A program made the translations under genes and the position numbers. The notes under the pieces are model-generated. The model was not told the DNA's origin and did not search any database. It saw only the letters and a list, made by a program, of their open reading frames with translations. This document shows positions 50,335 to 62,370 of a DNA stretch of 64,000 nt, piece by piece. This DNA is from Candidatus Evtepia faecigallinarum. Lineage in GTDB: Bacteria > Bacillota > Clostridia > Oscillospirales > Oscillospiraceae. Position 1 is the first letter of the stretch; the number at the start of each line of letters is the position of its first letter. The stretch lies in contig DXEA01000114.1 of NCBI GenBank assembly GCA_019115225.1, positions 16,165 to 80,164 of the forward strand. The letters run 5' to 3'.

Positions 50335-50385
50335 GAAAAACAAGGCGCGGGACAGAATTTCTCTCTCCCGCGCCTTGTTCTCTTG
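50335..50385. terminator. Bidirectional intrinsic terminator between convergent dapA and the flavoprotein gene
   Basis: aaaaacaaggcgcggga ... tcccgcgccttgttctc, a 14-bp perfect stem. Confidence 0.7.
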
Positions 50386-50388
50386 CCG

Positions 50389-51447
50389 TCAGGATTTCTG
50401 CTGCATCACTGCAACCAGGTTGTCTGCAAATTGCGTCAGCCGCTCCCCGATCCCCGGCATGGTTTTTGCCGAGCCCGGGTCATTGGCCGTCTGCATCAGG
50501 CAGAACCGGGGGGGCAGCATGGCGGTCTTGTTAAAGCACATGGCCCCCAGCAGCTGCTGGGCCACCAGATCACTGCCCGAATACCCCGAGACCACGATGC
50601 CGAAGAGGTATTTGTCAAACAGGTCCCGCTGGGTAAGCAGGCTGGTCAGGCGGTTGAAGAGGGCCATGATGTTGGCGGAAACGGCGTCGTTGTAGTTGGG
50701 GCAGAGGAAAAGCATGCCATCGCAGGCTTCGATGGAAGGCAGCACATCCTCATTGATGACACCACCGTAAAAGCAGGTATGCTGCTGGGCGAAGTGCAGA
50801 CAGGCCGTATAGGAACACCCCCGGCAGTCCTGGATGGTGCCGTTTTGCAGGCAGAGTTCGTCGCAGGAGAAGTGTGCCGGCAGGCGCTTGAGGACCTCTC
50901 GCCCCATCCAAACGGTGTTGGAGCGGCTGTTATCCGAGGCGTGGATCATCAGCAGCCTGGGCCGCTCAAAAGCCGGAGGGGCAAAGGTGAACACCCGCTG
51001 GGCCAGTTCCCGGATGCGGTGGGCATACGTCTCCTCCCAGGTCAGGCCCAGGTTTTTCGCCAGAATATGCTGGTTATACAGGGACCCCGTCCCTTCCACC
51101 AGCGGTTTCCCGGGGAAAAGACATCCGGCCAGGTTTGCGGCCAGCACCAGCGTTCGGCCAGCACATTTGGTATACAGCTCGCTCTGCCCATCCACGACCA
51201 CACCGGCTATCGCACCATCCAGGCTGTTGGTGTGCTGCCGGAACCAGCGCACCATGGCATAGAACGCCGGGGAAGGGCCAAACTCATCGGTACCGATCAA
51301 AAAGAGGATGCGGCGGCCGGCGAGAGCGTTTTGGGAAAATTCTTCCGGTGTGAGGGTTTCTGTGGGGATGCCCTCCAGGGCTTGTCCCAGCAGAGCGTTC
51401 AGGCGGGGGCTCTCCCCCATCGGGATCAGCGTCAGCGTCTCTTTCAT
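50389..51447 (-). CDS. Two-lobed flavodoxin-fold protein; the C-terminal half is NADPH-dependent FMN reductase / iron-sulfur flavoprotein-like, 352 aa
   Basis: C-terminal half: ..PRLLMIHASDNSRSNT.., ..CRGCSYTAC.., ..DGMLFLCPNYNDAVSANIMALFNRL.. N-terminal half: ..RRILFLIGTDEFG..AGVVVDGQSE.. The start at 51447 forms an ATGA overlap with the upstream gene. Confidence 0.65.
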   Translation of the reverse strand: MKETLTLIPMGESPRLNALLGQALEGIPTETLTPEEFSQNALAGRRILFLIGTDEFGPSPAFYAMVRWFRQHTNSLDGAIAGVVVDGQSELYTKCAGRTLVLAANLAGCLFPGKPLVEGTGSLYNQHILAKNLGLTWEETYAHRIRELAQRVFTFAPPAFERPRLLMIHASDNSRSNTVWMGREVLKRLPAHFSCDELCLQNGTIQDCRGCSYTACLHFAQQHTCFYGGVINEDVLPSIEACDGMLFLCPNYNDAVSANIMALFNRLTSLLTQRDLFDKYLFGIVVSGYSGSDLVAQQLLGAMCFNKTAMLPPRFCLMQTANDPGSAKTMPGIGERLTQFADNLVAVMQQKS

Positions 51448-52688
51448 GGCACGATCAGCTCCCTCAGCTGCCGATGGGTCTGTGCCAGACGGTCCAGCAA
51501 GGGCTGGCACAGGTCCTCCCGCACCACCGCCAGACCTTGTCTGGTGTAGCGGCTGCGGCAGCCAAAATAGGCCCCCGCCAGGGGGACTGCCCCGTAGTGG
51601 TCCTCCCCCCGCAGCAGCTGGAGCAGGGAGATGGCCGCCGAGGACAGGCCGGGGGCGATGTAGGGCTTGAAGCCCAGGTCCCGGACCCGCAGGTTGGCCT
51701 CCCGTGTCTGCCTTGTCAGCTCTTCCGACAGGGCGGCATCGTAGCGATCTCCGGCCCAGTGGTTGGCGATCACCAGCCCCTGGCCGTGGGGGCCGTAAGC
51801 CCGGCCCTGGGAAAAGTCCGCCCCCACCTTTTGGGCGTAGTAGGCCGCCCGGGCGGCCATGACCCCTAAGCCAAAGCCCTGGACCTGCTCAGGCAGCAGG
51901 CCGGCAAAGTCATAGCGCCCCTGTCTGTCCCGGTTGCTGGCCAGAAAGACAGACCGGGAGAGAAGGTCCACCGGGTCAGAGATCTGGCAAAAGACCCCTT
52001 GGAACGCTGCGTCCCGGGCCTTTTGGGCATAGCTGTCCAGCATCTGGCGGTTGGCCTCAAACTGGGCCATACGCACGTCTGCCACCCCGCTGTCCAGCCC
52101 CGGCACCCCCCGGGAGGCGGTGAAGGCGAACAGGTCGCACTGGAACAGCTCCTCCTCTTTGCAGATCGTTACCCTTGGCAGCGGCCCGCCGTCCGGGGAG
52201 AGGACCTGGTTGAGCTCCATCTCATACCGGGCGCACTGGGCCTGGTTGGGGTCGTAGATGGCGATTTCCCCAATCTCCCGCCCCAGGAGTTTCAGTCCCG
52301 TAAGCACTGTGCCGCCCACGTCTCCCAGGCCCACCAAGGTGACCCGAAAACCGGTCTTTTTGGGGGCCTTGTGGGCCAGCAGCCAGGCGAAGGCGCGGCC
52401 AAAGGACACGTTCAGCACCCCAGCCCCGACAGCTGACACCAGGACAGCCAATTCTTCCGGCACCGACGGGGGAACCTGTGCCCGGCAGGGGGTCAGAAGG
52501 TTTATCCCCTCCCCTTCCCAGAGTTCCTCCAGCCGTTGGATGGCAAAAAAGCCGCGGCTGGTCATGGGGTCCCGCCGGACCAGAAAAACCAGGGGGGCAA
52601 AAGGAGACGGCGCCGCCTCAGCCCCCAGGGGAAAAACGTCGTCGGTCTCTGCGCACAGGCAGAAACCCTGCCAGGATTTATAGATCAT
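51444..52688 (-). CDS. Lactate/malate dehydrogenase-like NAD(P) oxidoreductase with an N-terminal extension of about 100 aa, 414 aa
   Basis: Rossmann motif ..RVTLVGLGDVGGT.., ..ISDPVDLL.., ..GPHGQGLV.. (LDH GEHG-like). The start overlaps the giant ORF stop by 11 nt, and a gggagg RBS lies inside the giant ORF. Confidence 0.6.
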   Translation of the reverse strand: MIYKSWQGFCLCAETDDVFPLGAEAAPSPFAPLVFLVRRDPMTSRGFFAIQRLEELWEGEGINLLTPCRAQVPPSVPEELAVLVSAVGAGVLNVSFGRAFAWLLAHKAPKKTGFRVTLVGLGDVGGTVLTGLKLLGREIGEIAIYDPNQAQCARYEMELNQVLSPDGGPLPRVTICKEEELFQCDLFAFTASRGVPGLDSGVADVRMAQFEANRQMLDSYAQKARDAAFQGVFCQISDPVDLLSRSVFLASNRDRQGRYDFAGLLPEQVQGFGLGVMAARAAYYAQKVGADFSQGRAYGPHGQGLVIANHWAGDRYDAALSEELTRQTREANLRVRDLGFKPYIAPGLSSAAISLLQLLRGEDHYGAVPLAGAYFGCRSRYTRQGLAVVREDLCQPLLDRLAQTHRQLRELIVP

Positions 52689-55600
52689 AGTAATGGGGAC
52701 CTCCCTTTCGTGACATGCGCGCCAGCTGCTCCAGATCGTCCTCCAGATAGGCCGAGGCGGGCAGGGCGGGGTCGTACTGCATCCGGCTGCCCTTGTCCGG
52801 CAGGCGGGGCCGCAGCAGGGCCTCCCCCAGCCGCCCCAGGGTGAGGGCGGTGTTGAACTGACGCTGGTGTTCCTTTTCCAGGGCTTTTAAGATCTCATAG
52901 GCATTTTCCAACGCCGTCTGGCTCAGGGCCCGGATGCCCTGGTCCGTGGCGTCGGCCAGATAGTTGGGATAGATATAGGGCAGGATGAGGTTGATGGACC
53001 GGGGCAAGGTCTCCCCCGGCCGGGCCTGGCCGATGCTGTCCCCTCCCAGGAAGGGATAGAGCAGGCTCTCCGTGACCCAGTAGTGGAGGTTGGGGATGAA
53101 ATACTCACAGTCCACCTGCCGCTGCTGCACCTGCATCAGGTCCCGGCCATAGCCCGACATCACCGCCACGATCAGCCGCTGGATGCTCAGCCCCTCCTGG
53201 CGCATCAGCCGGTCCAGCTGCTCCATCCGGTAGCCCCGGTGGAGGAGGTCATCCACCAGGATCACCGGCCGGCGGAAGGATTTCAGGGTCCTGACCTGGT
53301 TGGGCAGGGGGGAATAGCCGGGGTATTCCACAATCTCAAAGCCCTCCATGTTGGCGTGGAAGCATTTTTCCACATGCAGGGTCTTGGTCACCGTGTTGGG
53401 GACGATCTCATCGGCCAGAATCTTCCCATAGGGCACGCACATGGACGGCCCCAGCTGGCGCACCCCCGGCGGCACGTCTTGCACCCCATTCAAGAGCTCT
53501 ACCCGCTCCATCAGGGCCTGGTTGAGAATTTCCGAGTCGAAGCAGAGCACCAGCATCCCCGGAAACAGGTCGGCCAGGGCCCGGCGCAGCCGGGGCCGGG
53601 TCCGGCCCACCACCTCTTTGATCTGGTCGCTGTCGTGGTGGGGTTTTTTGATGCGCAGCATCACGTCCTGCAGCAGCATCACCGGCGAGCGCATGTCCAC
53701 ATAATAGATGTCCTCCTGGCCGCTGACGGGCAGAAAGCCCAGCTGGTCCAGGGCGTACTGCATGGGGGCATCCTCCCGGCCGCAGCGGCAGACGGCATAG
53801 GTGTGGTCATACTCCAGGCTGCGGGCCAGCAGTTCGTTCAGCAGCATCCGGCAGGTGGCCCCCTGCTGCTCGGGAGAGCTCTCGGGGCACACCTTGTCCA
53901 CCAGCAGGATGCGGCCGGAGGTGTGGCGGCGGACATAGCTGGCCCCCTCAATGGACTGCAGGGCCTCATACAGGTCCGCCCCGCCCAGGGTGTGGCCCAC
54001 CGCCCACCCCAGCAGCGCCTGGGGCCGGGCCCGGAGGACCACCCCCAGGGCATTCTTCCGGTGTTCAAAAAGGTCGTTCATGGCTTTGGGCTGGTCCGGG
54101 GCCGCCCCCCGGCAGCGGCGGAAATAGAGGTCCTCCCGCCGCAGCACATTTTTGCGCTCGGGGGTGCGGACATACAGCCGGTTTTCATAGATGAAGGACT
54201 GGACCACCGGGGCCACCAGCATGGAGATGTCCAGGTTCCGGTCCACATACTCCCGGATACGGGTGGAGCTGACCGACTCAAAGAAGGGGGGCAGGGAGAC
54301 CGTCACCAGCTTGCCCCGGATGAGCTTGCTCAGCGGCACCGCCTGGGCCCCCTCCTGGGGCCGGTGAAAGACGATGTGGTTGTACTCCGCCGCCGAGCCG
54401 GGCTCCCGGCTGCGGTAGGCGGAGGCGTTGCGGATGACATCGCTCCCCGCCACCAAATAGAGCTCCGTGTCCCCCAGCAGCTGCCGCAGGCGGGCCAGGT
54501 CCTGGGGGTTGGCGATGTTCACGGGGATGTCATCGGGGAAGAGATAGGTGTCCCACTGGTCGGCCACGGACATGACCACGATCTGCCGCCGCTGGAGCTT
54601 GGCCAAGGTGCGCTTGCTCCAGGAAAATTCGTCCACGGCCAGATAGACCTGAAAGCCTCTGGCCAAAATCTCCTCCACGATCTTTTTGTGGCCCACGGAG
54701 AAGGGGTCAAAGGTGCCGGGGAAGAAGGCCGCCGGCTTGGGGGGCGGGAAGCGGAACTCTCCCCGCTGGACCTCGCAGGCCACCAGGAAGCGGTAGAGGT
54801 AGTTGAGCATGGCCGCCCGGTTGAAGAACGTCAGCTTCCCCCGCCGGGGCTCAGAGAGGATGGTCAGCAGCTTTTTGTGCAGGAGGACAAAGTAGTCATA
54901 CCGGTCCTCCAGGGGGATGCGGCGGCTGCCAAAGATCTCCCGGCACAGGACCACCAGCGCAGCCCGGTGGATCTCCCGGTGGTAGTGGCTGACCCCCATC
55001 ATCACCCCGCCCAGCACCCGCCGGGGCAGGGTGGGATGGCCCACAGAGGCATTGAGGATCTCCCCCAAGGTAAACAGGGCCGTCCGGGCCGGACGCACCG
55101 AGTCCCCCTGGAGCAGGTTTTCCAGCAGCTCCACTGCCTCCAGCAGCTCCTTTTCCGGCAGCATGCAGATGATCTGCCCCAGGTAAGGGGGGATGACGCG
55201 GGAGATCTGATCCTGGCCGCTCTCCAGCTCCCGCAGCAGGTCAATGGTGATCTCGTTGATCTGGGAGACCGTCAGCTGGCGGCAGACCTCGATCAGCCGC
55301 TGGCCGGCGTACTGGCGCACAGGCCGGTGCTCACTGATAGACAGAAGGTTCGACAGGTGCATGGCCGTGTGGAAGGCGCTGGCGGGGTGGCTGACCGCGT
55401 GGTCGCACAGCAGGTCGATCTGCACCAGCTTCACCGTCCAATGCACGGCATTTTTCAGATTGCTGAGGTAGAAATCCGAAACCTCCTCCGGCCGGATCTC
55501 CTGGGGGGCCCGGCCCAGGACCCGGCGGCGCATGCAGTCCAGGGCCAGGAAAAACTCCCCCGGCTGGGCCCGGAAGTTCAGGACCAGGGCCTGGATCTGC

Positions 55601-57375
55601 TCGGTGACCTCCGGCCGGTGCCGGCGCAGCTGCTCTAAGCAGCGCAGGCTATTGAGCTGCAGGCGGACCTCCCGGCTGGGGAGCATCCTGCCCAGTGCCT
55701 CCACGGTGGGGGCCAGGTCCTGGGCGGGCAGATAGGCACAGGGGACCTGACTCAGGGCGTCCACCAGGGTAAAGCGCTCCTCTCCCCTTGCCTTCCACAG
55801 GCGCTCCAGCAGGGGCCGCAGCAGGGGCTGGGCCTCCTTTTCATCGCAGCTGGCAAACAAACTCTGACAGATGGTTTTCAGGCCGTTGGAGATCCGCAGG
55901 GCGTGCTTGGACGAAATCTTCCGGTCCGGGTGCAGGCACAGAAGGATGTAGTGATCCCACAGGGCCACTGCCTCGTCCAGCAGGGCCATCATGGTGGGGG
56001 TCACCGCCCCCTTCCGGGCAGAGCCCGGCCGCTCCTTTCGGTACTTGGGGCCGCTGTTGGCCAGAATCAGGCCCATGATCCGCCCTGCGGTGTGGCGCAC
56101 GTCCCCCTCCGGGTGCATGAGCAGCTCGTAGAGCAGGGCCAGGGTCTTTTTCTTGTTGGCGGCGGTCAGATAGGTGCTGTATTCCTCCAGCAGGTGCAGA
56201 TAGGTGCGGATCTGCTGAAAATTCTTCTCACTCTTGGCCTGCTCCAGCAGCAGGTTGAAGGACTCGTCGGTGGTCACCATCCGCATCAGGCGAATGGCGT
56301 TTGCCAGGGTCATGTGCCGCAGGGCCTGGAGGGCCTGGGGAGAGGAGAGGAGGGAGGGGTCCGTGTGGGACACAGGCAGCAGCTCCTCCTCCCCCACCTG
56401 GGTGGGCACCCCCTGGGTGCGGAGATAGGACTCAAAGTCCCGCAGCTTATAGTACACCGTCTGATACCGCCGCTGCTTCTCCGGGGTCATGTTGTACAGC
56501 TTGGAAAAGACCATCTCATAGGCCTCGTCCAGGGTATAGATGGCCATGTGCTCCCTGCCGTCCTCCCCCCGGGTCCCCCGGACCCGGAAGTCGGCATAGA
56601 TGAGCAGCAGGGACTCGATGGGCAGGTTTTCAAACTCCAGGTCCCAGGTAGAGTGGTTGGCGGAGATGTAGCCGATCTCCTCCAACCCCAGCTGGCTGAA
56701 CCACTGCCAGGTGTAGTAGTAGTGCAGATACGGGATGCGCCGGGCGTCCTCCCCCCGGCAGCCGAACTTGCCCACGTCGTGGCCCAGGGCCGCCCCGCTG
56801 ACCAGAGGCAGGTCCACGGGGATGCCCGCCTTCACCGCCATCTTGGCCGTGTGCAGGGCCACGTTGTGCACGCCGATGGTGTGAGAGGCGGGGTCAAAGG
56901 GCATGATCTCCCGGCCGATGCGCATGAGGGCCAGCAGGTGGCTCTCCTCCACCGCCTGGCAGAAGCGGCGGTATTGGTCCTCCACCCGGCTGCCGGCGCT
57001 CTCCCCCTCCTCCACAGGCAGGAGGTCCAATAAGGGGTCCCAGGTCTCCTCCCGCCAGGACAGGACCATCTCCAGCACCGTCAGATACAGGATCTCGTCC
57101 GGGCGCAGGGGGGAGGCCCCGTGGCCCAGGGCCTCATCGGGGAAGAGGTTATCCGACAGGTGGACATACAGGCGCTCCAGCCAGCTCTCCTTGGCCTCGG
57201 CGGCCAGCCGCTCCATGCCTGACCAGCACAGGTCCAGCACCTGGGTGCACACGCCGGCGCTGTGGGGGGAGAGATGGCTCAGAGCTTCCGCCGTCTCCTC
57301 CAGCACCAGCAGTCCCCGCACGCGCCGGTCCAGATAGTCGTATACTTGCTCATAGGTCCAGATGGGTCCTGACAT
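52678..57375 (-). CDS. Giant multi-domain protein: HD phosphohydrolase, helical-repeat region, NadD/NMNAT-like nucleotidyltransferase, GNAT-like, PRTase-like; 1,565 aa
   Basis: Single uninterrupted 4,698-nt ORF with codon bias like its neighbours. Domain motifs are listed in the four sub-features below. RBS aaaggag lies 10 nt upstream of the ATG. Confidence 0.85.
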   Translation of the reverse strand: MSGPIWTYEQVYDYLDRRVRGLLVLEETAEALSHLSPHSAGVCTQVLDLCWSGMERLAAEAKESWLERLYVHLSDNLFPDEALGHGASPLRPDEILYLTVLEMVLSWREETWDPLLDLLPVEEGESAGSRVEDQYRRFCQAVEESHLLALMRIGREIMPFDPASHTIGVHNVALHTAKMAVKAGIPVDLPLVSGAALGHDVGKFGCRGEDARRIPYLHYYYTWQWFSQLGLEEIGYISANHSTWDLEFENLPIESLLLIYADFRVRGTRGEDGREHMAIYTLDEAYEMVFSKLYNMTPEKQRRYQTVYYKLRDFESYLRTQGVPTQVGEEELLPVSHTDPSLLSSPQALQALRHMTLANAIRLMRMVTTDESFNLLLEQAKSEKNFQQIRTYLHLLEEYSTYLTAANKKKTLALLYELLMHPEGDVRHTAGRIMGLILANSGPKYRKERPGSARKGAVTPTMMALLDEAVALWDHYILLCLHPDRKISSKHALRISNGLKTICQSLFASCDEKEAQPLLRPLLERLWKARGEERFTLVDALSQVPCAYLPAQDLAPTVEALGRMLPSREVRLQLNSLRCLEQLRRHRPEVTEQIQALVLNFRAQPGEFFLALDCMRRRVLGRAPQEIRPEEVSDFYLSNLKNAVHWTVKLVQIDLLCDHAVSHPASAFHTAMHLSNLLSISEHRPVRQYAGQRLIEVCRQLTVSQINEITIDLLRELESGQDQISRVIPPYLGQIICMLPEKELLEAVELLENLLQGDSVRPARTALFTLGEILNASVGHPTLPRRVLGGVMMGVSHYHREIHRAALVVLCREIFGSRRIPLEDRYDYFVLLHKKLLTILSEPRRGKLTFFNRAAMLNYLYRFLVACEVQRGEFRFPPPKPAAFFPGTFDPFSVGHKKIVEEILARGFQVYLAVDEFSWSKRTLAKLQRRQIVVMSVADQWDTYLFPDDIPVNIANPQDLARLRQLLGDTELYLVAGSDVIRNASAYRSREPGSAAEYNHIVFHRPQEGAQAVPLSKLIRGKLVTVSLPPFFESVSSTRIREYVDRNLDISMLVAPVVQSFIYENRLYVRTPERKNVLRREDLYFRRCRGAAPDQPKAMNDLFEHRKNALGVVLRARPQALLGWAVGHTLGGADLYEALQSIEGASYVRRHTSGRILLVDKVCPESSPEQQGATCRMLLNELLARSLEYDHTYAVCRCGREDAPMQYALDQLGFLPVSGQEDIYYVDMRSPVMLLQDVMLRIKKPHHDSDQIKEVVGRTRPRLRRALADLFPGMLVLCFDSEILNQALMERVELLNGVQDVPPGVRQLGPSMCVPYGKILADEIVPNTVTKTLHVEKCFHANMEGFEIVEYPGYSPLPNQVRTLKSFRRPVILVDDLLHRGYRMEQLDRLMRQEGLSIQRLIVAVMSGYGRDLMQVQQRQVDCEYFIPNLHYWVTESLLYPFLGGDSIGQARPGETLPRSINLILPYIYPNYLADATDQGIRALSQTALENAYEILKALEKEHQRQFNTALTLGRLGEALLRPRLPDKGSRMQYDPALPASAYLEDDLEQLARMSRKGGPHYYDL
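53026..53448 (-). other. Phosphoribosyltransferase-like segment of the giant protein (aa about 1310-1450)
   Basis: ..FRRPVILVDDLLHRGYRM.. resembles the type-I PRT PRPP loop (hydrophobic4-DD-x2-TGxT), but HRGY replaces TGxT. Confidence 0.45.
53671..54153 (-). other. GNAT-like segment of the giant protein (aa about 1075-1235)
   Basis: ..RILLVDKVCPESSPEQQGATCRMLLNELLARS..(motif-A-like)..ALDQLGFLPV.. Confidence 0.35.
54181..54729 (-). other. Cytidylyltransferase-fold (NadD/NMNAT-like) segment of the giant protein (aa about 883-1065)
   Basis: FFPGTFDPFSVGH (HxGH-type motif, aa 884-896) and ESVSSTRIREYV (ISSTxxR-type motif, aa 1033-1044). Confidence 0.65.
56566..56898 (-). other. HD-domain segment of the giant protein (aa about 160-270)
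   Basis: H165/H170 ... GHD(199-200)VGKF ... ANH(241) ... YAD(262). Confidence 0.6.
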
Positions 57376-57429
57376 AGGGCTTGCACTCCTTTGGCCGTTT
57401 CCGGGCTGTCTTTTGTCATATAGATTATT

Positions 57430-57458
57430 ATTATAAAGAACTCCGGCCCATTTTTCAA
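57430..57458 (-). promoter_or_regulatory. Near-consensus sigma-70 promoter directly upstream of the giant ORF
   Basis: Minus strand TTGAAA (57458-57453) - 17 nt - TATAAT (57435-57430), about 55 nt upstream of the ATG at 57375. Confidence 0.6.
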
Positions 57459-57463
57459 TTCCC

Positions 57464-58396
57464 TCACAGGGCCAGCAGGGTAATTTCTGTGGGATAGATG
57501 GGCGAACCCTTGTAGCGCAGGTAGAAGCGATAATCCGCCGCCAGCTGGTGGATCATCTGGGGGAGCTTCCAAAGGTCCTCGTTGTTGTGATAGACCGACA
57601 GCAGCAGCTTGGGGTGGTCCTCCCGGATGTGCCGCTGGGCGCCCCGGATGGCCTTTTGCTCAAAGCCCTCGATGTCGGCCTTGAGGAGGGTGATGGGCTC
57701 CTGGATGTCCTCGTCCAGGGTGGTCATCTCCACCACTGTCCCCCCCTTGCTGTCCTGGCCCAGGGTGTTGGCCGAGGCACCGCCCTGGCTGCCCACCAAG
57801 GATAAGCTGCCCGCCTGGTCCCCTACCCCTTTCCGGCGCAGGTCGATGTTGGGATAGTGGCCCACGTTCTTCTGCAGCTGGGCAAAGGTTTCGGGGGTGA
57901 TTTCATAGCAGTAGATCTTTTGGTAACAGTCTTCCCCGTAGTTGGCTAAGTAAGACAGCACCGTGTCCCCCACAAAGGCCCCCAGGTCCACAAAGACCTC
58001 CCGCCGGCTGCAGCGGACCAGGTCCAGGTCAAAATAGTCGTCAAAGAGGACCTCCTTGGTCTGGGCCGTGGTGGTGAAATCATAGCGGTACCAGTTGTTC
58101 AGAATGGCAAAAAGGGTCTTCCGGGACCGGTAGTCGGCCAGATGCTCATACACCCAGACAAAGTCATCCATGTGGGCAAAGAGGGCGTCTGCCTTCCCCT
58201 CGATCTCCTCATAGACCCCGTTGTCCGGGTCCAGCCGGCCCCAGAAGCCGAACTTGTTAAAGAAGTCCATACAGCTTTTCTGGGTGGCATAGGGCACGGC
58301 GTCAAAGGCCTTGCGGATGCGGTAATAGATCTCCTTTTCGCTCAGCCCCTTGATCTCGTTGGCCAAGGCGAAAAAGTTCTTGTCGATGCCATGCAT
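57464..58396 (-). CDS. FkbM-family SAM-dependent methyltransferase, 310 aa
   Basis: ..VFVDLGAFVGDTV.. (SAM motif I), ..LLKADIEGFEQKAI.. (FkbM signature). Confidence 0.8.
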   Translation of the reverse strand: MHGIDKNFFALANEIKGLSEKEIYYRIRKAFDAVPYATQKSCMDFFNKFGFWGRLDPDNGVYEEIEGKADALFAHMDDFVWVYEHLADYRSRKTLFAILNNWYRYDFTTTAQTKEVLFDDYFDLDLVRCSRREVFVDLGAFVGDTVLSYLANYGEDCYQKIYCYEITPETFAQLQKNVGHYPNIDLRRKGVGDQAGSLSLVGSQGGASANTLGQDSKGGTVVEMTTLDEDIQEPITLLKADIEGFEQKAIRGAQRHIREDHPKLLLSVYHNNEDLWKLPQMIHQLAADYRFYLRYKGSPIYPTEITLLAL

Positions 58397-58516: not shown

Positions 58517-59206
58517 TCAGGTCGCGGCCTGCCGGACGGCCTCTTGGTCATGCTGACGCTTTTCCTCAATGGCCTCGGCCAGGAGCATATCCTTCACCTT
58601 CATCAGGCGGATGATGTTGTTGCGCTCGTTCTCCTCCAGCTTCATGGAGATATACTTGATGCTCTCCTGCATCCGGGGGATCATCACATACTCCAGGGCG
58701 TTGACCCGGCGGCGGGTCTTTTCGATCTCTTCCGCCAGCAGCTGGGAGGCCTTTTCCACCTGGGCCAGCTTCAGCATGTCCTGGAACACCGAGGACAGGG
58801 CTTCCACTGCCCCGTCCACCTCGCAGGAGGTGGTGGCAAAGCCGTAGGGGTAGATGTCCCCTCCCTCGCTGCCTTTGGTTTCAAAGTGGTACACGGGCAC
58901 ATTCACCGACATGATGTTGCGAAAGGTCATCTCCAGCTCCACGCTCTGCTTGGGATAGAGCAGGGCCTGCTCCAGGGCTTCCGGGGACATGAGGGCCGAG
59001 GCCACGGTGAACGACCCGTGGGCCCGGTTCAGCCCCTCCTCCACCCGGCGGCGGAGGGCCCGGTTTTCCTGAATGACCTCCAAAAACTGCTTCATCAGCT
59101 CATCCCGCTTATCCTTCAGGAGCTTGTGGCCCCGGACGGCCGTCTTCAACCGGCCCTTCAGGCGGGTCAGCTCCATGCGGGTGGCGTTTACTGTGGCAGA
59201 GGGCAT
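58517..59206 (-). CDS. atpD: V-type ATP synthase subunit D, 229 aa
   Basis: ..NATRMELTRLKGRLKTAVRGHKLLKDKRDEL.. is a typical subunit D N-terminus. Confidence 0.9.
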   Translation of the reverse strand: MPSATVNATRMELTRLKGRLKTAVRGHKLLKDKRDELMKQFLEVIQENRALRRRVEEGLNRAHGSFTVASALMSPEALEQALLYPKQSVELEMTFRNIMSVNVPVYHFETKGSEGGDIYPYGFATTSCEVDGAVEALSSVFQDMLKLAQVEKASQLLAEEIEKTRRRVNALEYVMIPRMQESIKYISMKLEENERNNIIRLMKVKDMLLAEAIEEKRQHDQEAVRQAAT

Positions 59207-59218
59207 TTCCCCACCTCC

Positions 59219-60595
59219 TTACGCCTTCTTGGGCAGGTATTTGTCAATGTGCTCCTGCTTGATGCGCTTGAGCTCGGTCTCGGGCAGGATGGACAGCAGC
59301 TCCCAACCGATCTCCAGGGTGTCAAAGATGGAGCGGTTCTCCTCAAAGCCCTGGCCCACATACTTCTTCTCAAACTCTTCGGCAAACTTGGCATAGAGCA
59401 GGTCCACCGGCGACAGGGCGGCCTCGCCCAGGATGGACATGAGCTCCTTGGCCTGCTTGCCTGCCGAGTAGGCGGCGAAGAGCTGGTTCATGGTGCCCGA
59501 GTGGTCCTCACGGGTCTTGCCTTCACCGATGCCCTTGTCCTTCAGACGGGACAGGGAGGGCAGCACGTCGATGGGAGGCTGGACACCCGCCCGGTGGAGT
59601 TCCCGGGAGAGGATGATCTGACCCTCGGTGATGTACCCGGTCAGGTCGGGGATGGGGTGGGTCTTGTCGTCCTCGGGCATGGTCAGGATAGGGATCATGG
59701 TGATGGACCCCTCCTTCCCCACCTGCCGGCCGGCACGCTCGTACATGGTGGCAAGGTCGGTGTACAGATAGCCGGGGTAGCCGCGGCGGCCGGGGACCTC
59801 TTTCTTAGCCGCCGAGATCTCACGCAGGGCCTCGGCGTAGTTGGTGATGTCGGTGAGGATGACCAGCACGTGCATCCCCTCATGGAAGGCCAGATACTCC
59901 GCCGCGGTCAGGGCCATACGGGGGGTGGCGATACGTTCCACGGCGGGGTCGTTGGCCAGGTTGGTGAACAGAACGGTACGGTCGATGGCGCCGGTGCGGC
60001 GGAACTCTTCGACGAAGTAGTTGGACTCCTCAAAGGTGATGCCGATGGCGGCAAAGACTACGGCGAAGTTGGACTCGCCGTCGAGCACCTTGGCCTGCCG
60101 GGCGATCTGGGCAGCCAGGGCCGCGTGGGGCAGACCGGAGCCGGAGAAGATGGGAAGCTTCTGGCCGCGGACCAGAGTGTTCAGGCCGTCGATGGCGGAG
60201 ATGCCCGTCTGGATAAACTCGTTGGGGTAGGCCCGGGCGGCGGGGTTCATAGCTAAACCGTTGATGTCCCGGTACTCGTCGGCCAGGATCTCGGGGCCGT
60301 CGTCGATGGGGTGGCCCATGCCGTTGAAGACCCGGCCCAGCATGTCCCGGGAAACGGCCAACTGGAGGGGGTGGCCCAGAAAACGGACCTTGGAGTTGGC
60401 CAGGTTGATGCCGGCGCTGGCCTCAAAGAGCTGGACCACGGCGCTGTCGCCGTTGACCTCCAGCACCTTACCCCGGCGCATGGAGCCGTCAGCCAGCTCG
60501 ATCTCCACCAGTTCGTCAAAGGTAGCGCCTTCCACCTGCCGGACCACCATCAGGGGGCCGGAGATCTCGGCGATGGTACGATATTCCTTCATCAT
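59219..60595 (-). CDS. atpB: V-type ATP synthase subunit B, 458 aa
   Basis: ..[16 protein letters not shown].., ..[14 protein letters not shown].., ..[14 protein letters not shown].. Confidence 0.92.
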
Positions 60596-62370
60596 GCGCC
60601 CTCTCCTCCTTTCTCCACCAGCTGGGCGATCTGATCTTCCATGTCGGTGGCCATCTGTTCATAGGCACCTTGGTAGCTCTCTTCGGGGACACTCTTGGCC
60701 CGGCCGATGGCAGCCCGTACCGGGATGCTGAACAGGTCATAGGGTGCCACACCCTTCTCCAGGGCGTCCCGGCAGAGCTTGTCGTAATCCAGAATGATCT
60801 GCATCAGTCTGGCCTGACGGTCATAGTTGGAGAAGGAGTCGATGTCCACGAAGGCGTTTTGCTGCAGGAAGTCCTCCCGGATCATCTTGGCGGTCTCCAG
60901 GGTCAGCTGGTCGCCGGGGGCCAGGCCGTCCTTACCAACCAGCTGCACGATCTCGTTGAGGTTGGCCTCCTGCTGCAGCAGGCTCATGGCCTTGGCCCGG
61001 TTCTGGAAGAAGTGCTTGCCCAGATACTCATCGGACCAGGGCTTGAGGGAGTCCAGATACAGGGAGTAGGAGTTGAGCCAGTTGACTGCCGGGAAGTGAC
61101 GGGCATAGGCCAAGGAGGAATCCAGGGCCCAGAACACCTTGACGATACGCATGGTGCCCTGGGAGACAGGCTCGGACAGGTCGCCGCCGGGAGGCGAGAC
61201 CGCGCCCACTGCCGTCAGGGAGCCCCGGCGTCCGTCGGAGCCCACGCACTGGACCACGCCGGCCCGCTCATAGAACTGAGACAGACGGGAGGCCAGGTAG
61301 GCGGGATAGCCTTCCTCGCCGGGCATCTCTTCCAGACGGCCGGACATCTCACGCAGAGCCTCGGCCCAGCGGGAGGTGGAGTCGGCGATGACGGCCACAT
61401 CGTAGCCCATGTCCCGGAAGTACTCGGCGATGGTGATGCCGGTGTACACCGAGGCCTCACGGGCGGCCACAGGCATGTCGGAGGTGTTGGCGATGAGCAC
61501 CGTCCGCTTCATCAGGGACTCGCCGGTGCGGGGGTCCACCAGTTCGGGGAACTCCTGCAGCACGTCGGTCATCTCATTGCCGCGCTCGCCGCAGCCGATA
61601 TAGACCACCACATCCACGTCAGACCACTTGGCCAACGCATGCTGCACCACAGTCTTGCCCGAGCCGAAGGGGCCGGGCACGGCTGCCGTGCCGCCCTTGG
61701 CCACGGGGAACATGGTGTCGATGACCCGCTGGCCGGACTGGAGGGGGGTGTTGGGGGCGAACTTTTTGGCATAGGGCCGGCCCACACGGACGGGCCACTT
61801 CTGCATCATGGTCAGTTCCTTTTCCTTCCCCTGGTCGGTCTCCAGCACGGCCACCGTTTCGGTGACGGTATAGGAGCCGGACTGGATGGAGCGGATGGTG
61901 CCGGACAGGCCGATGGGGACCATGATCTTGTGCTGAACCGAGGGGGTCTCCCGGACGGTGCCGATGATGTCCCCTTCCGACACATGGGTCCCGGGGGCCA
62001 CTGCGGCCTTAAAGTCCCACTTGCGCTCCCGGTTCAGGGCGGGCACTTCCACGCCCCGGGGGAGGTTGTTGGAGCCGGTCAGCTCGGCGATGGCCTCCAA
62101 GGGCCGCTGGATGCCGTCATAGATCATCTCAATCAGACCAGGCCCCAGCTCTACGGACAGGGGGGCGCCGGTGGTCTCCACCACGGCGCCGGGACCCAGG
62201 CCCGAGGTCTCCTCGTAGACCTGGATGGATGCGGCGTCCCCTGTCATGGTCAGCACCTCGCCGATGAGCCGCTGCTCACCCACACGGACCACGTCGGCCA
62301 TGTTCGCCTCAGCAAGGCCCGTGGCCACCACCAGGGGGCCGGAAACTTTCACAACTTTGCCGCTGCTCAT
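60592..62370 (-). CDS. atpA: V-type ATP synthase subunit A (catalytic), 592 aa
   Basis: Walker [10 protein letters not shown], ..[13 protein letters not shown].., ..[10 protein letters not shown].. Overlaps the subunit B start by 4 nt. Confidence 0.92.

Follow-up and report, generated by a model that had tools for sequence, protein, structure and literature searches.

A giant HD, nucleotidyltransferase and PRTase-fold protein and its two redox-type partners in a conserved gene cassette of anaerobic Clostridia

We have analysed a 64,000-nucleotide stretch of the genome of Candidatus Evtepia faecigallinarum (contig DXEA01000114.1; the whole stretch is called the window below), and in it a cassette of three genes headed by a giant gene for a protein of 1,565 residues. 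The giant protein joins an HD phosphohydrolase domain, a HEAT/ARM solenoid, a nucleotidyltransferase of the NadD/PPAT class, a GNAT-fold domain and a phosphoribosyltransferase (PRTase)-fold domain. Its gene is almost always followed by genes for a protein resembling lactate dehydrogenase (LDH) and for a flavoprotein. Our preferred reading, which we hold tentatively, is that the three gene products form one enzyme complex that builds and hydrolyses a metabolite of the phosphoribosyl (di)nucleotide type.

Distribution of the family and linkage of the three genes

The giant protein belongs to a large family. Two protein searches returned 6,894 and 7,867 matches at E ≤ 0.001, each match standing for a cluster at 90% identity and 8,000 candidates having been scored per search. 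A profile search that does not depend on a word index, made with the C-terminal 490 residues, gave 557 clusters at 50% identity, and the best 150 of these 557 all belong to the giant-protein family or are fragments of its members. Carriers were found in at least 584 species genomes by a scan of one genome per species. The family is found chiefly in gut and anaerobic Clostridia, and thousands of metagenomic sequences stand behind some of its clusters. Among the Oscillospiraceae it occurs in Faecousia, Vescimonas, Evtepia and Avoscillospira, and further carriers are Christensenellaceae, Anaerovoracaceae, Anaerotignum, Blautia, Clostridium aminobutyricum, Sinanaerobacter and Chakrabartyella. A preliminary description of this DNA, made from its sequence, had called the system an orphan, which is apt in the sense of uncharacterized but not in the sense of rare. 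No paper on the giant-protein family came up in literature searches by architecture, by combination of genes or by accession number; in NCBI, UniRef and JGI its members appear as 'hypothetical protein' or 'nicotinate-(nicotinamide) nucleotide adenylyltransferase'.

The linkage of the three genes was counted over 97 non-redundant loci in which the DNA downstream was long enough. In 92 of them the giant gene is immediately followed, on the same strand, by the LDH-like and flavoprotein genes, and in a further two the giant gene is fused in frame to the LDH-like gene (open reading frames, ORFs, of ~2,006 residues). The co-occurrence that had been suggested as a check of the preliminary description is thus borne out. 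The exceptions, one of the 97 each, are a locus with the flavoprotein gene moved upstream, one with no detectable flavoprotein gene, and a cluster without both partners within 8–10 kb. The natural fusion suggests that the giant and LDH-like proteins work as a physical complex.

Two sets of individual loci may be recorded here. Fused giant and LDH-like ORFs of ~2,006–2,055 residues, followed by the flavoprotein gene, are found at L116 2737–8754, L120 2437–8454 and L122 3–6167 (metagenome). An intact full-length giant gene with the partners absent within 8–10 kb downstream or upstream is found in L013, L114, L130, L131, L132, L135 and L158, L013 being the representative of the single 90%-identity cluster that lacks both.

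Domains of the giant protein and of its partners

On the giant protein of the window, Pfam recognizes a cytidylyltransferase-like domain (residues 884–1042) as the sole domain. The other assignments draw on the family. We modelled the protein with AlphaFold2 in two halves from alignments of diverse homologs (residues 866–1565, pLDDT 89 and pTM 0.88; residues 1–880, pLDDT 88 and pTM 0.86), and scored motif invariance over 34–39 homologs of 33–86% identity. In Foldseek searches of the PDB the top-50 lists consisted entirely of NadD enzymes for the C-terminal half or of HEAT proteins for the N-terminal half, and the C-terminal model was then searched against a viral structure library in which NadD-like folds are rarer. 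Profile matches, structure models and conserved motifs together uphold all five domains named in the preliminary description. Sequence-profile searches of the PDB with the PRT-like and HD segments gave no matches. Mean column identity reaches 64% in the HD segment and 63% in the PRT segment, with 40% in the GNAT-fold segment; the high values, taken from the alignments, fit catalytic sites. Because the model of the C-terminal half is confident and rigid (pTM 0.88), it suggests that the nucleotidyltransferase, GNAT-fold and PRTase-fold domains make up one functional unit.

The HD domain has the pattern H...HD...D and the all-helical character that define the HD phosphohydrolase superfamily, the region being helical in the AlphaFold2 model. 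Residues H165, H199-D200, H218, H241 and D262 are invariant and H170 is at least 90% conserved, so that the motif set read earlier is sustained and gains an additional invariant histidine in H218. We take the six-ligand set H165/H199-D200/H218/H241/D262 to be of the binuclear HD type. With Pfam HD (PF01966), 33 of the 34 members give a match (best E 4.7e-7), although the window sequence by itself reaches 13.8 bits where the cutoff is 22. In NCBIfam the HDIG model matches 27 of the 34 HD segments, while all 34 match the HD portion of the 'DVU_1551 family NTP transferase' model, the best models being the DVU_1551-family model, TIGR00295 and HDIG; the YqeK model (COG1713) is not among the NCBIfam matches of the giant protein or of the 34 segments. 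Since their motifs are invariant, the HD and nucleotidyltransferase domains are probably both catalytic. The following helical-repeat-like stretch, put at about 600 residues in the preliminary description, is a HEAT/ARM solenoid: Foldseek pairs residues ~345–870 of the model with PP2A-A, CAND1, importins and designed armadillo proteins at E ~1e-5.

The nucleotidyltransferase domain is the most readily recognized part of the protein. The cytidylyltransferase fold and the motifs GTFDPFSVGH and SSTRIRE noted earlier are both substantiated, with 31.2 bits for Pfam CTP_transf_like (PF01467; cutoff 21), a Foldseek match of residues 882–1070 to Mycobacterium tuberculosis NadD (E 1.3e-8, TM 0.79, 25% identity), and motifs that are invariant as FDPFSxGH (within GTFDPFSxGH) and SSTxIR. 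One might then suppose that the giant protein is simply the cell's NadD with accessory domains and that the operon serves ordinary NAD biosynthesis. NadD enzymes are its best structural matches, the best NCBIfam match is the NadD model TIGR00482, and several members carry that name in the three databases. The score, however, is 43.1 bits against an equivalog cutoff of 112.45, and the remaining NadD models, such as PRK00071, fall short of their cutoffs by more, so that canonical NadD membership is rejected. Moreover, the N-terminal motif is PPAT-like (PGTFDPxSxGH), PPAT ranks alongside NadD in sequence searches, and an invariant DEFSWSK segment occupies what is presumably the place of the P..P.K mononucleotide site of NadD. 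A canonical enzyme would need none of the other 1,370 residues nor two partner proteins, and we consider this explanation improbable.

The GNAT-fold domain is the least conserved module. Its secondary-structure order in the AlphaFold2 model is that of GNAT proteins (beta1-alpha1-alpha2-beta2-4-alpha3-beta5-alpha4-beta6), and many GNAT acyltransferases were matched in the viral library (E 2.6e-4 to 1e-2, target TM up to 0.63). The fold expected from the preliminary description is therefore present, but not the acyl-CoA-binding signature. The loop Q/R-x-x-G-x-G/A between beta4 and alpha3 is not conserved, its length and sequence varying across the family, and Pfam GNAT matches one of 34 members. 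Judged by its sequence, the domain is probably not an acyl-CoA-dependent acetyltransferase.

The PRTase-fold domain is the most conserved module of the giant protein and is common to its HD-less paralogs (see below). Foldseek against the viral library gave a PRT-domain protein (3.8e-4) and Hpt (4.5e-4), and also OPRT, APRT and PRPP synthetase. Pfam Pribosyltran (PF00156) matches 16 of 33 members (window sequence alone 11.1 bits, cutoff 26.3), and NCBIfam models for adenine PRTase (APRT) and archaeal HPT match 21 (best 3.4e-5) and 12 of the 33, respectively. Its loop, which resembles that binding phosphoribosyl pyrophosphate (PRPP), reads VILVDDLLHRGYR in the window protein. In the family consensus VILVDDLLH(K/R)GYR, four residues (D1375, D1376, H1379, R1383) never vary and G1381 reaches a conservation of 90% or more. 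The loop had been described as altered, and it is so throughout the family: the DD pair is kept, and a basic L-L-H-(K/R)-G-Y-R sequence stands in place of the canonical (S/T)-G-x-(S/T) phosphate loop.

The first partner resembles LDHs at the level of the family. Its family profile matches L-LDHs of the PDB over their NAD-binding domains (E 6e-7), and a profile of the C-terminal half matches LDHs only, weakly but colinearly. The earlier call of a protein of the LDH/malate dehydrogenase (MDH) type thus has some support from the family, though the single window sequence stays below the Pfam Ldh_1_N cutoff (21.8 bits versus 27). Invariant residues are R206, R280 and H301, equivalent to R109, R171 and H195 of LDH, together with M277; GLGDVGG and D146 are at least 90% conserved. 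The protein has an 11-residue insert relative to LDHs. Its ~105-residue N-terminal extension is absent from some distant orthologs, the C. aminobutyricum gene being called at 330 residues. No bona fide LDH, sought as a check of the alignment, was found in the flanks of the loci.

The second partner, encoded by gene 3, matches Pfam FMN_red (PF03358) with 47.3 bits (cutoff 24) over residues 185–338 of its ORF. It has four invariant cysteines in the arrangement C-x2-C-x4-C-x8-C and the FMN-type motifs PNYND and SGYSG, and because of these cysteines and motifs its sequence suggests an Isf-like Fe-S flavoprotein. It had been regarded as a double flavodoxin, a call that the FMN_red match bears out for the C-terminal half. 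The N-terminal 160 residues match no Pfam family in 10 diverse orthologs and a comparison of the two halves by hhalign gave a probability of 0.6%, so that an internal duplication finds no support.

Related proteins that lack the HD domain are informative as to which parts belong together. These paralogs have ~1,050–1,300 residues, and their alignment to the giant protein starts at residue ~340–380 in the profile search. Many have degenerate transferase motifs (GH changed to RD, SSTRIR lost), and they keep the PRT-fold motifs LVDDxxHKGxR, CVPFGK, ESDLYPFxGGD and SINxILPY. Their gene context comes from exact look-ups, since the metagenome scan returned loci of the main, HD-containing family only. 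Two of them, on unrelated contigs, are followed by no LDH-like or flavoprotein gene and overlap by 4–8 nt with the end of an upstream PPDK_N gene of ~860–895 codons. The PPDK_N partner has a central ATP-grasp, PEP-synthase-like domain between unrecognized N- and C-terminal regions. The pair is a second, equally uncharacterized two-gene system. Such pairs lie at L170 7317–13303 and at L171 and L172 7426–13198, with paralogs of 1,065–1,100 residues; in L170 the paralog is ~9 kb from a main-family giant gene, and one genome can accordingly hold both subfamilies.

Since the paralogs keep the core and the PRT motifs but exchange the partner, comparison of the sequences marks the HEAT–nucleotidyltransferase–GNAT–PRT core, and above all its PRTase-fold domain, as the ancestral constant, and assigns the HD domain and redox partners to the main family alone. 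It might also be argued from the paralogs that this core, made up of partly inactive enzyme folds, acts chiefly as a scaffold or as an adaptor of the chaperone type, and that the partner enzymes do the chemistry. The architecture is kept where transferase motifs are lost, the partners differ by subfamily and yet are always translationally coupled, fusions to the LDH-like protein occur, and the GNAT-fold has no cofactor loop. On the other hand, invariant HD and transferase motifs over 33–86% identity in the main family would be unexpected for dead domains, and the PRT-like motifs are conserved even between subfamilies. We consider a role chiefly as scaffold unlikely.

The arrangement of the genes in the window is given in Table 1. 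The giant ORF of the preliminary description is confirmed by the ORF list and by thousands of full-length homologs, and because of these homologs its frame is the real one. Three antisense ORFs lying over the real genes, 53083–55638 (+; 851 residues), 50383–51549 (+; 388) and 55903–57033 (+; 376), are shadows caused by a G+C content of 62–65% and not genes; the G+C content of the window is ~62% and uniform. The site proposed earlier as promoter of the giant gene is present, with 11 of 12 consensus positions, and is one of two such sites in an 8.7-kb region. Both overlaps described for the coding sequences are also there. The stop of the giant gene and the start of the LDH-like gene overlap by 11 nt, with GGGAGG 12 nt upstream of the LDH-like ATG, and the LDH-like stop and the ATG of gene 3 overlap as ATGA. 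The ORF drawn mechanically for gene 3 begins at GTG 51510 (50389–51510). Its 21 extra codons occur in no ortholog, and because of this and of the ATGA overlap the ATG at 51447 is taken from the sequences as the true start.

Table 1. Positions of the genes, expression signals and protein domains in the window
Feature	Position (nt)	Strand	Residues	Description and basis
Giant gene	52678-57375	-	1565	ORF; HD, HEAT/ARM, nucleotidyltransferase, GNAT-fold, PRTase-fold
LDH-like gene	51444-52688	-	414	ORF; LDH/MDH-superfamily dehydrogenase-like, ~105-residue N-terminal extension
Flavoprotein gene (gene 3)	50389-51447	-	352	From ATG 51447; C-terminal half FMN_red
FkbM gene	57464-58396	-		ORF list
Sigma-70-like promoter site TTGAAA-17 nt-TATAAT	57430..57458	-		Directly after FkbM stop; predicted, consensus match
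Ribosome-binding site AAAGGAG	57386..57392	-		10 nt before giant-gene ATG; sequence reading
HD phosphohydrolase domain, HDIG-type	56371..56985	-	~131-335	Pfam HD, NCBIfam, invariant columns
HEAT/ARM-type alpha-solenoid, ~530 residues	54751..56370	-	~336-875	AlphaFold2 (all-helical) and Foldseek
NadD/PPAT-like (HIGH-type) nucleotidyltransferase	54160..54750	-	876-1072	Pfam, PDB profile matches, Foldseek
GNAT-fold domain	53656..54129	-	~1083-1240	Secondary-structure order of the model and Foldseek; least conserved module
Type-I (purine-type) PRTase-fold and helical tail	52681..53628	-	~1250-1565	Foldseek, Pfam, NCBIfam

The FkbM gene does lie immediately upstream of the cassette, as had been stated, but it is no member of the unit. 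Across 85 loci it stands with the cassette in one, that of an 86%-identical relative (L006), and it is rejected as a fourth gene; the four-gene unit and the methylation step once proposed with it fall away. Its position between a V-type ATPase operon and the cassette is found in this lineage only. Genes for subunits D, B and A of the ATPase, identified by reading the translations, lie at 58517–62370 (−) immediately upstream of it. FkbM has a weak candidate match in PADLOC (PDC-S05, E 4e-4).

Proposed function, gene neighbours and alternatives

In the complex that we propose, the PRTase-fold domain, with its intact DD pair and its basic H-K/R-G-x-R loop, would bind or form a 5-phosphoribosyl compound. 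The transferase domain would add AMP, or another nucleoside monophosphate, from a nucleoside triphosphate onto a phosphate of this compound, and the product would be pyrophosphate-linked, NAD-like or of the dinucleotide type, as with NadD, PPAT and FMN adenylyltransferase. The HD domain would cleave the product of the transferase or mis-made analogues, like the YqeK domain in NadD–YqeK fusions, and the GNAT-fold domain would bind a ligand other than acyl-CoA. The HEAT solenoid would dock both partners, the LDH-like protein as an NAD-dependent dehydrogenase of the 2-hydroxy/2-oxo-acid type and the flavoprotein with FMN and probably an Fe-S centre, and these redox partners would act on the non-nucleotide part or on the product. 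We favour one complex because the three genes are coupled in translation, stand side by side in nearly all loci and are fused in some. The idea of a dedicated multi-step nucleotide pathway with redox steps, already voiced in the preliminary description, appears reasonable given the tight and near-universal linkage of the three genes.

A number of observations weigh against such a complex. The PRT loop lacks the canonical T-G-x-T, and inspection of the sequence shows no basic PPi-loop residue at the usual position; the domain may therefore bind a nucleotide or PRPP without carrying out PRPP chemistry. The GNAT-fold domain has no acyl-CoA signature. In the LDH-like partner the invariant M277 stands at the position of the catalytic Asp168 of LDH, which is unusual for the LDH/MDH superfamily and may mean an altered chemistry. 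One clade carries the giant gene without partners nearby. The most enriched gene neighbours are nitrogen-assimilation genes, which the proposed complex does not explain. Finally, the shared core cannot carry out a sequence of PRT, nucleotidyltransferase and HD reactions in every relative, because the paralogs keep the PRT motifs, often have degenerate transferase motifs and pair with PPDK_N instead of the redox partners.

Beyond the three cassette genes the flanks vary between loci; in the window the neighbours are dapA and asd. Nevertheless, genes for glutamate dehydrogenase (GDH), glutamine synthetase (GS or GSIII) or AsnB stand no more than 10 kb away in 17 of 48 long loci, against a few per cent roughly expected by chance. 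Oscillospiraceae, Anaerovoracaceae and Anaerotignum are the sources of these loci, in which the genes often lie right next to the cassette or run divergently. NAD-related neighbours are present as well: a NudC-like Nudix gene in 4 and a Carb_kinase gene (NAD(P)HX dehydratase family) in 7 of the 48, and, once each, a NadR-type AAA_28 kinase and an ADP-ribosylglycohydrolase. A main-family giant gene of L170 (1–3873, −), cut off by the locus end at 1,535 residues, follows pxpB-pxpC-pxpA, the genes for 5-oxoprolinase, at a distance of 62 nt. The neighbours hint at a tie to the metabolism of glutamate, glutamine or 2-oxoacids.

This leads to a less probable alternative, in which the complex would be a machine not for biosynthesis but for the regulation or sensing of nitrogen or redox status. 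Its transferase and HD domains would form a pair that writes and erases a mark in the manner of GlnD/GlnE. The mark would be a reversible nucleotidylylation of a partner protein, or else a signal nucleotide would be made and broken. The GNAT-fold and PRT-fold domains would be effector-binding modules, comparable to the PRT-like PurR and PyrR or to the ACT domains of GlnD, and the HEAT repeats would bind the targets. The recurrence of the nitrogen genes in three distant clades, the giant gene following pxpBCA, a GNAT-fold without a catalytic cofactor loop, a non-canonical PRT loop, the usual role of HEAT repeats as protein-binding scaffolds and the exchange of partners by the paralogs would all suit such a machine. 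However, the recurrent nitrogen and amino-acid genes are independently regulated transcription units, because asnB has its own T-box and dapA its own lysine riboswitch. T-box leaders before the cassette-adjacent asnB and a lysine riboswitch before the dapA operon were seen at L002 17173–17417 and 4822–4994 and at L080 19012–19252. Upstream of the cassette itself neither the window nor six diverse loci contain a riboswitch or leader, and boxes for GlnR/TnrA, Rex, CodY or sigma-54 are not enriched upstream of the giant gene in 135 unique loci. The very high conservation of the PRT-fold domain resembles that of an active site more than that of an allosteric one. In addition, no protein modification is known for transferases of the HIGH type, that is of the NadD/PPAT class, which also counts against a regulatory role.

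A related possibility, still doubtful, is that the cassette makes, uses and destroys an undescribed ribonucleotide-derived cofactor or signal that is tied to glutamate and glutamine metabolism and specific to anaerobic Clostridia, among them many Oscillospiraceae abundant in the human gut. The giant protein would then be both synthase and hydrolase, with the LDH-like protein and the Fe-S flavoprotein as dedicated redox enzymes.

Defence systems often contain HD nucleases, nucleotide-modifying enzymes and large scaffolds, the giant protein is itself large and multidomain, and the HD domain of some members is weakly similar to HD models of Cas10 and Cas3. An anti-phage or mobile-element system is nevertheless highly improbable. 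PADLOC finds no match for the three cassette proteins, and the cassette is single-copy and, in whole families, surrounded by housekeeping genes (dapA, asd, V-ATPase, GDH, GS). The uniform G+C content of the window, in which no integrase or repeats were noticed, speaks the same way. On the empty PADLOC result for the three proteins and on the housekeeping context we reject it. A modest share of the probability remains for an explanation other than those set out here.

Relation to known systems and significance

The closest precedent for the link of NadD with an HD domain, pointed to in the preliminary description, is the NadD–YqeK fusion, whose HD domain hydrolyses the dinucleotides and analogues that NadD produces (PMC9426524). 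Like these fusions (JCVISYN3A_0380 of Mycoplasma; PRK07152), the giant protein has a NadD-class transferase and an HD domain in one polypeptide. In contrast, its domain order is reversed, a ~530-residue HEAT solenoid separates the two domains, the HD domain is HDIG-like with no match to the YqeK model, and the transferase scores below all NadD equivalog cutoffs. Three further modules and two obligatory partners set it apart as well.

NAD salvage, with a PRTase and an NMN/NaMN adenylyltransferase (compare NadR), likewise brings together a PRTase-fold and an NMNAT-fold in one system, and in NadM–Nudix an NMNAT-fold is combined with a pyrophosphate-bond hydrolase, there a Nudix domain and here an HD domain. 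The PRTases of NAD salvage, PncB and NadV, are of type II. The pyridine-salvage logic that the preliminary description had seen in the pairing of PRTase and NMNAT is therefore valid in so far as both folds are present, but the analogy is loose because the PRT of the giant protein is of type I and purine-PRT-like, with HKGYR in the loop and not TGxT. The HEAT, GNAT-fold, LDH-like and flavoprotein parts have no counterpart there.

Citrate lyase ligase (CitC) also unites GNAT and HIGH-type transferase folds in one protein, and a phage 'citrate lyase ligase' was among the structural matches to the transferase domain. However, the order of the two in the giant protein is reversed, Pfam Citrate_ly_lig does not match, the GNAT-fold has no CoA loop, and there are no acyl-carrier or citrate-lyase genes near the cassette. 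GlnD and GlnE combine a nucleotidyltransferase with an HD or a second transferase domain and with sensor domains. They are similar in that a transferase and a hydrolase are joined in one large protein with extra putative ligand-binding domains, and the place of the giant gene beside genes for glutamine synthetase and GDH adds to the likeness. Their fold is unrelated, being of the Pol-beta type as opposed to the HIGH/Rossmann type of the giant protein, and no PII genes were seen.

As to the partners, the LDH-like protein is colinear with LDHs and keeps the Rossmann motif and the equivalents of R109, R171 and H195, but differs from LDHs in the methionine for Asp168, the insert, the N-terminal extension and a Pfam score below the cutoff. 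The flavoprotein partner shares the FMN_red match and a compact four-cysteine motif with Isf and NADPH-dependent FMN reductases. It differs from Isf in its extra N-terminal domain of 160 residues and, presumably, in the spacing of the cysteines.

Taken together, these comparisons place the giant system as a multidomain nucleotide- or dinucleotide-metabolizing enzyme on the theme of NadD and HD. The HEAT solenoid, the type-I PRT-fold with its basic loop and the LDH-like and flavoprotein partners are found in none of NadD–YqeK, the bifunctional NMNATs and CitC.

The family described here is large, wholly uncharacterized and widespread in gut and anaerobic Clostridia. The names its members now carry are uninformative or probably wrong, and could mislead reconstructions of NAD biosynthesis. 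Because carriers exist in culture (Anaerovorax odorimutans, Clostridium aminobutyricum, Anaerotignum, Sinanaerobacter, Chakrabartyella and Faecousia intestinalis), the question of its function is directly testable. The strong conservation of the giant protein and its near-obligatory link to redox proteins point to an important and so far unrecognized nucleotide or cofactor biochemistry, possibly connected with nitrogen. If the cassette does serve an undescribed cofactor, it would represent a new kind of metabolic system and not a variant of NAD salvage.

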